Shown here one piece after another: positions 5,223 through 64,000 of a stretch of DNA of 64,000 nucleotides. A program made the translations under genes and the position numbers. Source of the stretch: Bacteroidales bacterium (GTDB taxonomy: Bacteria > Bacteroidota > Bacteroidia > Bacteroidales > G3-4614); the NCBI GenBank assembly GCA_017559955.1, contig JAFYPQ010000006.1, forward strand, positions 1,362-65,361, written 5' to 3'. Within the stretch, counting starts at the first letter, position 1. The number at the start of each line of letters is the position of its first letter. The notes under the pieces were generated by a model that had not been told where the DNA came from, made no database searches, and was given only the letters and a program-made list of their open reading frames with translations.

Positions 5223-5726
5223 TTATTTTTGAACATCAATATTGTAATATCCCATTACTTGAGCATTAATTAATGTTCCTTGTTCAATTACTGCATCACC
5301 ACCTTTTATTGCAAGACATGGAAGACCAATTATAGCGCCAAAACCTGTAAATGTAAGACCTAAGCCCAAGCCTAATGCTTTCCCTCTTTTATTTTTTCCT
5401 TCTGCTGTAACATTTCCATTAAGTTGTATTGCTTGTCCATCAACAGAGTTTACAGATATACAATTAATAGATACTTTGCCAGGTTTGCCAACACCTTTTT
5501 TAGATGTCTTTTCGATTTTCAAAATAACAGGTGTTCCTTTAGATATTAATATATCTCCTTGAAGACTTTTAACATCAGTTAGAACAGTTGCTGAGGCGCT
5601 ACCACCTTCACTACTACTAACTGCGTCATTTATCATAATGGGAATAATTTGTCCATTACCCAAAGGAACATTAGCATACGCACTTGCACAAAAAAGTACA
5701 CACAAAGCAATCATTAATTTCTTCAT
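5223..5726 (-). CDS. Exported hypothetical protein with glycine-rich hydrophobic hairpin
   Basis: Signal peptide MKKLMIALCVLFCASAYA; beta-rich core; ALGLGLGLTFTGFGAIIGLP segment. Confidence 0.65.
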   Translation of the reverse strand: MKKLMIALCVLFCASAYANVPLGNGQIIPIMINDAVSSSEGGSASATVLTDVKSLQGDILISKGTPVILKIEKTSKKGVGKPGKVSINCISVNSVDGQAIQLNGNVTAEGKNKRGKALGLGLGLTFTGFGAIIGLPCLAIKGGDAVIEQGTLINAQVMGYYNIDVQK

Positions 5727-5844: not shown

Positions 5845-6045
5845 TTAAAGTTTGTCTGAGTAGTAAGCGAAGAAATTGTGTCCGAGAATTTTTGATATTT
5901 TAAAGAGTAGGGCAGAGTCAATACTCTCTCTCTTGAAGATATTATAGACATTGGTGCGTTCACAGCAAAGTTTACCAGCAAACCAGGTAACAGAGCGACC
6001 TTGTTTGTAGAACTCTTCTTCAATTATTTTACCTATGTGTACCAT
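5845..6045 (-). CDS. Small XRE-family helix-turn-helix regulator
   Basis: HIGKIIEEEFYKQGRSVTWFAGKLCCERTNVYNIFKRESIDSALLFKISKILGHNFF matches the common Bacteroidales small XRE pattern. Confidence 0.85.
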   Translation of the reverse strand: MVHIGKIIEEEFYKQGRSVTWFAGKLCCERTNVYNIFKRESIDSALLFKISKILGHNFFAYYSDKL

Positions 6046-6048
6046 AAT

Positions 6049-6221
6049 AAAAAAGGCGGAACCATTCGATACTTAAATTCTACCTGAGGTACCGCCAAGC
6101 ACCCTGCACACAAATAAGTACGAACAGTCCACGCCATACATAGGCTATGAACTATTAACACTTATTCTCGTATGCTTTCAATTTGGCGGTTTTCAAGTAG
6201 AGAGAATAAGAGCAAAAGCTC
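6049..6221 (-). ncRNA. Putative structured cis-regulatory leader RNA with alternative terminator (copy 1)
   Basis: Nested helices 6183-6200/6080-6098 and 6143-6166/6113-6135. Segment 6113-6135 can alternatively pair with 6055-6075, followed by U6 just before the XRE ATG. Confidence 0.7.
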
Positions 6222-6296: not shown

Positions 6297-6304
6297 CAAA
6301 AGTA
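6297..6304 (-). promoter_or_regulatory. Bacteroidota -7 promoter element for the structured leader/XRE transcript
   Basis: TACTTTTG matches TAnnTTTG; implies a 5' leader of about 245 nt. Confidence 0.6.
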
Positions 6305-63081: not shown

Positions 63082-63172
63082 TTACATAAAATTTTTGAAT
63101 AATTTAGGAATATCCATTTTAAATAATTAATTTCGCAATGTCTCACGTGTAGTGAGGCATGACATATTAAAA

Positions 63173-63455
63173 GGCGTTTACTACGCTTTGGTTTTGACAC
63201 CTTGAAATCGTAGGAAAATTTCAAATTGTCTGTCAAGAACAAAGCAACAGTAGATGCCCCATAGGTGTGTAATATACATATCTCAAATGCCGTGTAGCCA
63301 TTGGTGTACCAATACGCCAATAGCAACTATTGGTGTATAAGGAATGTTATATATACATGCGTGGGGTTTCTGCGTTGCTCGTTTCGACAGACAGGGCAAT
63401 TCCTACGAGCCTCAAGGTGTGAAGCGAGCATAGTGCAGGGCTTCACGCTTTTTTT
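63173..63455 (+). ncRNA. Putative structured cis-regulatory leader RNA with alternative terminator (copy 2)
   Basis: Helices 63197-63216/63400-63420, 63227-63234/63386-63393 and 63244-63261/63359-63381; alternative pairing 63359-63381/63424-63448 followed by U7; TAATTTCG promoter-like element at 63128-63135. Confidence 0.72.
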
Positions 63456-63524
63456 ATTGTCTTTATATTTAGGATTACTTTATAAGGGTTGCCGAAGTCC
63501 TCTCCCTAAAACTTTGCGAACAGC

Positions 63525-64000
63525 ATGAGTACAAAGTTTTTTAATAACGATGCAGGCAACACTCTCTTCGACAAATTAAAAGGAATAGCCACAGAAATGG
63601 CAACTTTCAACCGTTTCTTGGCTGTTGTAGGATTTTTTCGTTCATCAGGTTACTTCAAACTACGAAAAGAGTTAGGCGATATTTCAGAGATAAAAATATT
63701 GGTAGGCATCAATATTGATGATATTTTCCGCAAACATAACAAAGCCATTTTTATGCTTGGCAATGAGGCTAAGGCAAAAGAGATCTATCAAAATGGCTTT
63801 AAAGAAGATATAATAAAAGCACACTACTCTCCCGAAATAGAAGGAGGCATATTGCAAATGTGCGAAGACCTTGTATCCGGAAGGCTTCAAATACGTATTC
63901 ATGATAAAAAGAATCTGCATGCAAAGTTCTATTTATGTTTACCAGATAACCATAGCGAGCATAGCGATGGTTGGGTAATAATGGGTTCTTCCAACATATC
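63525..64000 (+). CDS. PLD-nuclease-domain protein, probable N-terminus of a restriction-associated SNF2-type helicase (partial)
   Basis: Not in the ORF track. Reads MSTKFFNNDAGNTLFDKLKG...AVVGFFRSSGY...LHAKFY...IMGSSN (HxK...GSxN motif); open to the window end. Confidence 0.75.
   Translation, partial: MSTKFFNNDAGNTLFDKLKGIATEMATFNRFLAVVGFFRSSGYFKLRKELGDISEIKILVGINIDDIFRKHNKAIFMLGNEAKAKEIYQNGFKEDIIKAHYSPEIEGGILQMCEDLVSGRLQIRIHDKKNLHAKFYLCLPDNHSEHSDGWVIMGSSNI

Follow-up and report, generated by a model that had tools for sequence, protein, structure and literature searches.

Leader RNAs of Bacteroidales, apparently uncatalogued, that probably work as four-segment transcription attenuators

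Two elements in the genome of a Bacteroidales bacterium, differing in the sequence of their helices and alike in architecture, raise the question of whether they represent a family of regulatory RNA and, if so, how such RNA might act. The DNA considered, referred to here as the window, comprises 64,000 nucleotides (GenBank assembly GCA_017559955.1, contig JAFYPQ010000006.1, positions 1,362 to 65,361, forward strand), and the elements lie at 6049-6221 (minus strand; copy 1) and 63173-63455 (plus strand; copy 2). The original prediction, made from the sequence alone, described these as two divergent copies of one switchable RNA leader preceding accessory or defense genes. The analysis presented here shows that they belong to a large, apparently uncatalogued family of leader RNAs in gut Bacteroidales, the members of which are read here as acting in cis, probably by four-segment attenuation of transcription.

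The architecture that the two elements were said to share is indeed present. In copy 2, the outer helix pairs CACCUUGA-AA-UCGUAGGAA (63198-63216) with UUCCUACGA-GCC-UCAAGGUGU (63400-63420), and in copy 1, read on the minus strand, CUACUUGA-AA-ACCGCCAA (6200-6183) pairs with UUGGCGGU-ACC-UCAGGUAG (6098-6080), such that the internal loops correspond. AAAUU behind the 5' strand, AGGG-N3 ahead of the 3' strand, a small hairpin 5' of the helix, CAUAG, GCGUGG and a U-tract (63449-63455 and 6054-6049, respectively) were likewise seen in both copies. Folding of copy 2 (63140-63460, plus strand) yielded an energy of -129.1 kcal/mol (z = -9.8), equaled by none of 100 shuffled sequences, and folding of copy 1 (6240-6040, minus strand) yielded -62.9 kcal/mol (z = -5.1), equaled by none of 200.

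Sibling copies first surfaced in BLAST searches within the window's own genome, which spans 1.9 Mb. Two covariance models (CMs) describing the 3' ~95 nt of the leader were built, namely, R1 from 16 sequences of the window's genus and R2 from 42 diverse sequences, and genomes were sampled from that genus (12), from the order (151, representing 148 genera) and from outside the order (146). Rather than two copies, the window's genome was found to hold 10 with the full architecture; R2 listed 11 places, yet the eleventh (C38:35980) resembles a plain terminator and was dropped. R1 missed short copies, copy 1 included, and R2 recovered these weakly (E 0.007 and 9.5e-4). R1 matches were obtained in 11 of the 12 genomes of the genus, at 0-8 per genome (E <= 0.01), and in 13 of the 151 genomes of the order, the window's genome included, corresponding to 12 of the 148 genera. 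R2 gave no match among the 146 genomes sampled outside the order, matches in that panel being limited to the window's genome and two others of the same order, one with 11. The highest copy number seen was the 11 R2 matches, at E <= 1e-4, in a 2.3-Mb genome of the same order (G277, family f44).

An exact-pattern scan of species-representative genomes returned at least 120 Bacteroidales loci. Labels among the matches listed include Prevotella, Segatella copri, Paraprevotella, Bacteroides, Phocaeicola and Parabacteroides, as well as Muribaculaceae, Duncaniella, Alistipes and Paludibacteraceae; the few listed loci labeled Oribacterium, Pseudoflavonifractor, Oscillospiraceae or as Firmicutes metagenome-assembled genomes are probably mis-binned Bacteroidales contigs. 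A leader copy was also found on two Phocaeicola plasmids, and the phage records searched contained no leader match. The design of the outer helix was identical in 50 of 53 CM hits, with one of the other three lying at a contig end and two having no clear partner, and element length ranged from 180 to 340 nt. CM searches, proposed in the original prediction, and pattern searches uncovered homologs in Bacteroidales and, as described below, covariation among them.

Comparison with Rfam 15 (4227 models, including the T-box, riboswitch classes, protein-binding leaders and Bacteroides small RNAs), also proposed at the outset, identified no family at gathering score anywhere in the window, and hence none for either copy. 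Permissive scans of both copies gave chance-level hits only (best E 0.14, to a microRNA model), and Rfam scans of 16 homologous loci from diverse taxa returned two tRNAs and one abiF motif, none of these on the leader. The abiF RNA motif (47.8 bits) lies at L132:1254-1290 (plus strand) in Prevotella ihumii, ~230 nt from a leader copy at L132:750-1024 (minus strand).

Read from 5' to 3', every copy begins with a promoter-like motif, a variable hairpin termed P0, segment 1 and O5, the 5' strand of the outer helix, itself made up of P1a, an AA bulge and P1b. Next come a junction (J2) and a helix strand (P2), segment 2 and a variable apical hairpin, the last of these missing in short forms such as copy 1. 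The 3' part comprises segment 3, P2', GGGCAA, O3 (P1b', an RCC bulge and P1a'), segment 4 and the U-tract. At the position of P0, paralogs were seen by eye to carry a hairpin that is similar in kind yet unrelated. Two of the segments have two complementary partners each, namely, segments 1 and 3 in the case of segment 2, and segments 2 and 4 in that of segment 3; moreover, segments 1 and 3 are alike, as are segments 2 and 4. In copy 2, segment 3 accordingly pairs with segment 2 in a long rod or with segment 4 in the proposed terminator. The switch as first conceived, in which a segment B pairs with an upstream A or a downstream C, was therefore right as to the alternative pairings and incomplete as to their number, given that an additional 5' segment (63173-63198) competes for segment 2, making four segments in all.

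These four segments allow for three mutually exclusive pairings, 1:2, 2:3 and 3:4, each of which is backed by covariation. Candidate loci pooled from the CM and pattern searches numbered 160, and a filter for outer-helix architecture retained 147, 50 of which were CM-derived and 97 of which had been retrieved with a pattern that has fixed letters for part of segment 3 and P1b. Paired cells and covariation were counted in MAFFT alignments not fitted to any structure, with slid partners and 500 shuffles serving as controls. For hairpin I (1:2 and its apical stem), 77.7% of the cells were paired, as compared to 40-46% with slid partners, 25 of 30 pairs had changed on both sides and the covariation score was 0.307, as compared to 0.205±0.010; the apical stem, which joins UUGAAA to UUUCAA in the two-hairpin state, was 81.8% paired. 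For hairpin II (3:4 and a GGC/GCC tip that was itself 92.9% paired), the corresponding values were 79.6% of cells versus 35-50%, 23 of 32 pairs and a score of 0.289 versus 0.220±0.007. The rod (O5:O3, P2 and 2:3) showed 79.2% of cells paired versus 37-44%, 35 of 43 pairs changed on both sides and a score of 0.496 versus 0.203±0.011, with O5:O3 reaching 92.2% and 13 of 14 pairs. In none of these three cases did any of the 500 shuffles reach the score obtained. Hairpin II, which comprises B:C together with E3:E4, bears out the predicted pairing of B with a downstream partner ahead of the U-tract.

Further counts, made on 149 sequences, gave paired fractions of 97% for O5:O3, 84% for 1:2, 83% for 3:4, 75% for 2:3 and 77% for 1:4, with slid controls at 35-56%. 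When cognate duplexes were compared with non-cognate ones, the cognate advantage was 11.0 kcal/mol for O5:O3, 10.9 for 2:3 with P2, 4.7 for 1:2 and 3.6 for 3:4, and about 0 for the controls 1:3, 2:4, 1:O3 and O5:4. In every helix, G·U pairs outnumbered A·C combinations (723 versus 87 in 3:4 and 94 versus 15 in O5:O3, 149 sequences), indicating that it is the RNA strand, rather than a DNA palindrome, that is under selection. The 50 sequences from outside the pattern scan presented the same pairing picture, including the G·U excess. On such sequence evidence, 1:2, 2:3 and 3:4 are mutually exclusive and each is under selection, as would be expected of a four-segment attenuator.

The predicted 3:4 hairpin is stable, ranging from -17 to -44 kcal/mol across members (-41.9 kcal/mol in copy 2), and lies directly before the U-tract, as does the hairpin of an intrinsic terminator, with its base (GCGUG/CACGC) abutting U7 in copy 2 and U6 in copy 1. 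A simple terminator scan omitted this hairpin because of the 3-8-nt loop limit imposed. Local hairpins inside segment 4 range from 0 to -10 kcal/mol and measure exactly 0.0 in 7 of 50 members, and a first reading in which the small local hairpin of segment 4 was taken as the terminator was dropped, this structure being weak or absent in many members. Because the local hairpins are weak, and 3:4 is strong and abuts the U-tract, the role of terminator was assigned to 3:4 and that of antiterminator to the rod; in this model, the 3:4 hairpin would terminate transcription and the rod would prevent termination.

In the proposed mechanism, each copy would be transcribed from its own promoter, in the order of segments 1 to 4, the U-tract and then the regulated gene. 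Upon pairing with segment 1, segment 2 would contribute to hairpin I, the putative anti-antiterminator. Upon pairing with segment 3, segment 2 would form the inner part of the long rod, the putative antiterminator, closed by the copy-specific O5:O3 helix. Segment 3, upon pairing with segment 4, would give rise to hairpin II, the putative intrinsic terminator, with its base set against the U-tract. In the two-hairpin state, the P1b strands are predicted to occupy the apical loops of hairpins I and II and the bulge bases to form the stems presenting these loops, such that a loop-loop kiss between the two P1b strands could start conversion to the rod.

As calculated, the rod is the more stable state, at -115.6 versus -100.9 kcal/mol for the two hairpins in copy 2 and -60.8 versus -52.9 kcal/mol in copy 1. 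In eight of eight members, 1:2 was the minimum-free-energy (MFE) structure until segment 3 had been transcribed, after which 2:3 and then the closed rod took its place; the terminator hairpin never appeared in the full-length MFE structure. As the rod has the lowest energy of all folds at each transcript length that includes segment 3, read-through would be the relaxed outcome. By a narrow margin, we therefore favor a scheme in which termination calls for hairpin I to be held or for the loops to be blocked by a trans-acting protein or RNA, or else for kinetic competition with RNA polymerase. Control of the opposite polarity is nearly as likely.

Such logic has precedents. In the pyr operon of Bacillus subtilis, a three-hairpin attenuator depends on the protein PyrR, with the antiterminator being more stable unless the first hairpin is held, and the gene for the regulator lies behind its own attenuator. 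Judged by these generally known features of pyr, the leaders resemble that system in their logic, with the proposed anti-antiterminator, antiterminator and terminator all being placed in one 5' leader. They differ from it in matching none of the Rfam models, which should include the PyrR-binding leader, in belonging to a different phylum, and in having a different cargo and an extra, long-range barcoded helix. Like the trp and his attenuators, the leaders contain four segments of overlapping complementarity, in which segment 1 resembles 3, segment 2 resembles 4, and a 3:4 hairpin followed by a U-tract is the presumed terminator. A ribosome-mediated attenuator was nonetheless rejected: inspection of 16 sequences by eye, with no systematic scan, revealed no conserved leader peptide or leader ORF over segment 1, with most paralogs having no ATG before segment 1 and copy 2 having only ATG-ACA-TAT-TAA. 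This mini-ORF of three codons lies directly before segment 1 of copy 2, at 63161-63172, and is not conserved in the paralogs. As in ColE1 RNA I/RNA II and R1 CopA/CopT, the apical loops are predicted to contain 7-nt sequences complementary to each other (typically CUUCGCA and UGCGAAG), and loop I often includes a word like YUNR, the motif known from kissing loops. In contrast to the antisense controls that use kissing loops (ColE1, R1, and the P4 CI and P1 C4 RNAs to which the original prediction likened the elements), both loops of the leader belong to one molecule, and no processing or immunity function is evident.

The surroundings of the leaders argue for a role in cis. The motif TAnnTTTG, which we take to be the -7 element of Bacteroides promoters, was found 30-130 nt upstream on the same strand in 112 of the 147 copies, with a peak at 60-79 nt, as compared to 9 of 147 on the opposite strand. 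Past the U-tract, a co-oriented ORF of at least 50 aa begins within 300 nt at 133 of 136 loci (median 68 nt), as was also the case at 50 of 53 loci in a first set. The description of the elements as a structured cis-regulatory RNA family is upheld on three counts, namely, the covariation, the promoter motif that the leaders have to themselves and the downstream ORF in the same orientation. In copy 1, the ATG of the 66-aa ORF lies so close to the U-tract (3 nt) that the ORF can be reached by read-through only, and in the C30 copy, the ATG directly adjoins the end of the element; consequently, neither copy has room for a separate promoter.

RNA contigs from three bovine gut libraries covered only the conserved parts of the leader, with 63159-63269 represented in all three and 63344-63454 in two. 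In the same contigs, prmA, the gene upstream of copy 2, was uncovered, although with contigs the uncovered parts prove nothing. Many of the variants evidently stem from related organisms, and apparent skips within the contigs look like paralogs with a different middle. These data hint, if weakly, that RNA pools include members of the family.

An own promoter motif and an end composed of a hairpin and U-tract would also befit a stand-alone small RNA gene, in which a constitutive terminator would release an RNA of ~250-340 nt acting in trans or as a stable rod, with the downstream genes being expressed independently. That leader parts but not neighboring genes were covered by contigs in two of the three RNA runs agrees with this view, as does the existence of other multi-copy small RNA families in Bacteroides. 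One of these, FopS of Bacteroides thetaiotaomicron, comprises RNAs of ~65-70 nt with a 5' single-stranded seed and a terminator and, as its authors state, has been deposited in Rfam (PMC11697453). As described there, FopS and GibS share with the leaders a multi-copy nature and canonical promoters in Bacteroidales; they differ from the leaders, which are 180-340 nt long, form a rod and match no Rfam model, and identity with FopS or GibS was excluded on these grounds of size, structure and Rfam comparison. A stand-alone small RNA gene is, moreover, unlikely in view of the near-constant co-oriented ORF a median of 68 nt downstream, the gaps in copy 1 and the C30 copy that are too short for a separate promoter, and the absence of the terminator hairpin from the full-length MFE structure of all eight members.

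The products of 30 downstream genes were compared with Pfam. Surface or secreted proteins included BspA-type leucine-rich-repeat (LRR) proteins (3), a DUF6567 lipoprotein, an outer membrane protein (OMP) β-barrel, a SusD-like protein and a Listeria-Bacteroides repeat protein, together with Big_2, CarboxypepD_reg, Peptidase_S74, SH3_3 and TPR matches and a weak match to FlgO. Defense-like cargo comprised SNF2/ResIII helicases (2, one with PLD), DUF2971, Z1 and a methyltransferase, and regulators were represented by small Cro/C1-type helix-turn-helix (HTH) proteins (3, all weak matches); 9 of the 30 had no Pfam match. The cargo is thus only in lesser part the defense genes originally envisaged and consists mostly of surface or secreted and small HTH proteins. 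Downstream of prmA in seven species of the genus, the leader is conserved and the cargo behind it differs (window 63456-63524; L064, L065 and L075), with four species having a PLD-SNF2 helicase, one a different SNF2 helicase, one a truncated fragment and another gene, and the seventh an unrelated membrane protein 262 nt away. At this locus, the leader appears to be an expression platform that stays fixed within a hotspot of cargo exchange. At another (L085, contig C25 of the window's genome), one leader is followed by three tandem paralogous genes for small lipoproteins or secreted proteins (159, 147 and at least 117 aa) with similar N-termini.

Conservation within the leader is uneven. P1a differs in nearly every copy and so resembles a barcode, and the AA and RCC bulges are invariant; across members, the entropy of O5 amounts to 1.45 bits for P1a and to 0.00 for AA. 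Segments with two partners are conserved (0.6-1.0 bits), whereas the one-partner helices P1a and P2 are near-random (1.35-1.74 bits). To judge from sequence, this pattern, with two-partner segments kept and P1a and P2 drifting, is what a bistable RNA would be predicted to show. The invariance of the AA/RCC and GGGCAA internal-loop bases could also point to a metabolite- or ion-sensing riboswitch, in which the rod with its two conserved internal loops would serve as aptamer and a ligand would stabilize it against the 3:4 terminator. A leader position with mutually exclusive terminator and antiterminator folds is in keeping with this idea, as is a widespread, multi-copy occurrence like that of some signaling riboswitches. 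Yet AA, GCC, AAUUC and GGGC, which had been considered conserved loops, pair with each other in the two-hairpin state (GAA-UUC and GGC-GCC). Because all of the conserved bulge and junction bases are so paired, they need no ligand pocket to explain them, and none is left over to form one. With the cargo being mixed (LRR and other surface proteins, OMPs, SusD-like proteins, helicases and small HTH proteins) and no Rfam model matching, neither a pocket beyond base pairing nor a coherent regulon was recognized, as judged from sequence and cargo, and a riboswitch appears quite unlikely. A four-segment attenuator explains the same bases through their alternative partners.

The most frequent cargo is a small HTH protein, found behind 3 of the 10 leader copies of the window's genome; such cargo is hence recurrent and not universal, and no Rfam model for a protein-dependent attenuator of the PyrR, TRAP or BglG type matches the leader. 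The 66-aa protein behind copy 1 has no Pfam match, and its relatives give weak matches to HTH_26 and HTH_3. The window's genome contains four 63-75-aa HTH-like paralogs with an N-terminal HIG motif, encoded at window positions 5845-6045 (minus strand), C30:3644-3832, C20:15909-16100 and C33:10234-10431; the first three of these, which were the ones inspected, lie directly behind a leader. A leader lies directly upstream of 6-7 of the 12 HTH loci inspected. HTH genes were found in 7 of 13 RNA-positive genomes, the query used detecting none in the other 6, and R1 gave no match in 12 of the 19 genomes with an HTH gene; the overlap of 7 genomes compares with ~1.6 expected by chance. The small HTH protein is a candidate for an autoregulated factor, no more, and was rejected as a universal effector, given that co-occurrence is only partial.

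The leader might instead be a recruitment site for a NusG paralog of the UpxY or RfaH kind, or for another leader-binding protein, possibly the downstream HTH protein, with the folds being secondary. The frequent juxtaposition of leader and HTH gene and their excess overlap among genomes fit this possibility, as do the surface and accessory cargo, reminiscent of RfaH and UpxY regulons. In the capsule operons of Bacteroides, leaders contain opsX pause sites and are served by UpxY/UpxZ, with opsX being a ~40-bp DNA-and-pause element for which no terminator/antiterminator alternative is described (PMC11685472). The present leaders are like these in exerting, as proposed, leader-based control of elongation ahead of genes for surface structures in Bacteroidales; in addition, the consensus and commonest P1b 3' strand, UGCGAAG(G), resembles opsE (CTGCGAAGCATA) over a short stretch, as well as the YGCGNAGCR hairpin of the capsule leaders (PMC11685472). 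Unlike the capsule-operon leaders described there, however, those considered here have no upxY genes and no conserved ops-like word (PMC11685472). P1b covaries freely (compare the UUCCUACGA of copy 2 with the UUGGCGGU of copy 1), and the YGCGNAGCR word is absent from copy 2 (UUCCUACGAGCC) and copy 1 (UUGGCGGUACC), such that identity with an opsX/UpxY leader was rejected. No NusG- or UpxY-like protein was found among the 30 downstream proteins scanned. Together with the 6 of 13 RNA-positive genomes in which no HTH gene was found and the 12 of 19 HTH-positive genomes with no R1 match, these findings render a recruitment site very unlikely as the primary role, as compared to the attenuator.

Finally, a DNA-level element (an inverton, a repeat like a miniature inverted-repeat transposable element or an island attachment site), the inverted repeats of which would mimic RNA helices, is suggested by the long inverted repeats surrounding 100-190 bp, by multiple copies beside variable surface and restriction genes, as with Bacteroides invertons, and by the leader that stays in place past prmA as the cargo varies, and is nonetheless highly improbable and was ruled out given the strand-specific G·U excess in all helices, the AA (5') and RCC (3') bulges and interior orientation that are identical in 147 of 147 loci, and a promoter motif that lies outside the repeats, with the lack of a phage match and of strand-change joints listed in four runs (contigs, and hence weak evidence) pointing the same way.

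Several points weigh against the four-segment attenuator. Applied to the MAFFT alignment of 149 sequences, RNAalifold returned no structure for the 5' module (energy 0.0) and, at full length, only O5:O3 and a few other pairs; as a result, support for 1:2 rests on a structure derived from copy 2. Because segments 1 and 3, like segments 2 and 4, are alike, evidence for any one pairing counts in part as evidence for the others, too. The 1:4 pairing occurs in the MFE structure, yet shows no cognate-specific signal (0.7 kcal/mol), and was rejected as a by-product. Conservation figures for the pattern-fixed parts of segment 3 and P1b are biased, as 97 of the 147 sequences were pattern-derived. Segment 4 of copy 2, like that of close relatives of this copy, contains a local hairpin of modest stability (-8.2 kcal/mol), which could permit some termination even in the rod state. 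The cargo genes, as surveyed in the 30 proteins scanned, have no single common pathway, and the RNA runs were kept as contigs, from which starts, ends, levels and strand cannot be read.

The positions of the parts of both copies, and of the genes that follow them, are collected in Table 1.

Table 1. Parts of the two leader copies and adjoining genes, in window coordinates.
Feature	Position	Strand	Remarks
Copy 2, promoter-like site TAATTTCG	63128-63135	+	One mismatch to TAnnTTTG; no exact match at copy 2
Copy 2, P0, variable 5' hairpin ahead of the conserved part	63140-63158	+	From the fold of copy 2
Copy 2, segment 1 GGCGUUUACUACGCUUUGGUUUUGAC, 5' strand of hairpin I (proposed anti-antiterminator)	63173-63198	+	
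Copy 2, O5, 5' strand of long-range helix	63198-63216	+	P1a 63198-63205, AA bulge 63206-63207, P1b 63208-63216
Copy 2, J2 5' side AAUUUCAA and P2 5' strand	63217-63233	+	J2 63217-63224, P2 63225-63233
Copy 2, segment 2 GUCAAGAACAAAGCAACAGUAGAUGCCCC, partner of segment 1 or segment 3	63232-63260	+	
Copy 2, variable apical hairpin	63261-63358	+	-28.0 kcal/mol alone; short members, e.g., copy 1, have a very short one or none
Copy 2, segment 3 (B = GCGUGGGG, then E3 = GCGUUGCUCGUUUC) and P2 3' strand	63359-63393	+	P2 3' strand 63386-63393
Copy 2, J2 3' side GGGCAA and O3	63394-63420	+	GGGCAA 63394-63399, P1b 63400-63408, GCC bulge 63409-63411, P1a 63412-63420
Copy 2, segment 4 (E4 = GAAGCGAGCAU, C = GCUUCACGC) and U7 tract	63419-63455	+	Segment 4 63419-63448, U7 63449-63455
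Start of downstream gene, 1100-aa PLD-like / SNF2 / ResIII helicase	63525-63998	+	Continues beyond window end
Copy 1, promoter-like site TACTTTTG	6297-6304	-	~75 nt upstream of segment 1
Copy 1, segment 1 and O5 (CUACUUGA-AA-ACCGCCAA)	6183-6221	-	Segment 1 6221-6201, O5 6200-6183
Copy 1, J2 5' side, segment 2 and 7-nt apical loop	6136-6182	-	J2 6182-6170, segment 2 6169-6143, loop 6142-6136
Copy 1, segment 3, AGGGUGC and O3 (UUGGCGGU-ACC-UCAGGUAG)	6080-6135	-	Segment 3 6135-6106, AGGGUGC 6105-6099, O3 6098-6080; R2 match E 0.007
Copy 1, segment 4 and U6 tract	6049-6079	-	Segment 4 6079-6055, U6 6054-6049; 3:4 hairpin -34.9 kcal/mol
66-aa small HTH-like protein gene	5845-6045	-	ATG 6045-6043, 3 nt past U-tract

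Past the HTH gene of copy 1, a gene at 5223-5726 (minus strand) encodes a 167-aa secreted protein with a TrbI-like match that is weak (E 2.8e-6) and falls short of the Pfam cut-off, and is preceded by its own TAATTTTG motif at 5769-5762.

In the literature, no description of this RNA was found; a 2021 catalog reports thousands of human-microbiome RNA candidates, with the candidates being listed in its supplements, such that the family may figure there (PMC8040213). The leaders apparently constitute a new class within a known type of device, the transcription attenuator, distinguished by a barcoded long-range helix and by predicted intramolecular kissing loops. To our knowledge, few cis-regulatory RNAs are known in Bacteroidota, a phylum that dominates animal and human guts; here, an abundant and widespread family lies ahead of genes shaping the cell surface and phage defense. 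Tentatively, one may picture a gut-Bacteroidales RNA regulon that has gone unrecognized, in which one shared effector, be it a protein or released leader RNAs acting via the P1b loops, would gate kissing-loop refolding across accessory genes, with the P1a barcode insulating copies from one another or setting a copy-specific level of read-through. Were this so, the regulon would parallel, at the level of RNA, the phase variation by DNA inversion to which genes of these kinds are known to be subject.

The model is directly testable, given that a published report describes a system with recombinant Bacteroides RNA polymerase (PMC11685472) and that cultivable carriers exist. Among the latter are Segatella copri HDE04, Prevotella ihumii Marseille-P3385, Phocaeicola oris 14-104 and Bacteroides caecigallinarum ET12, as listed in the pattern scan, and Phocaeicola dorei CL06T03C03, with a copy on a plasmid. 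The compact layout of promoter and leader could, furthermore, be of interest for Bacteroides engineering. If the switch is real, it would represent a natural three-state RNA switch in which every conserved base is explained by alternative pairing, and would offer a testable handle on how accessory surface and defense genes are controlled.

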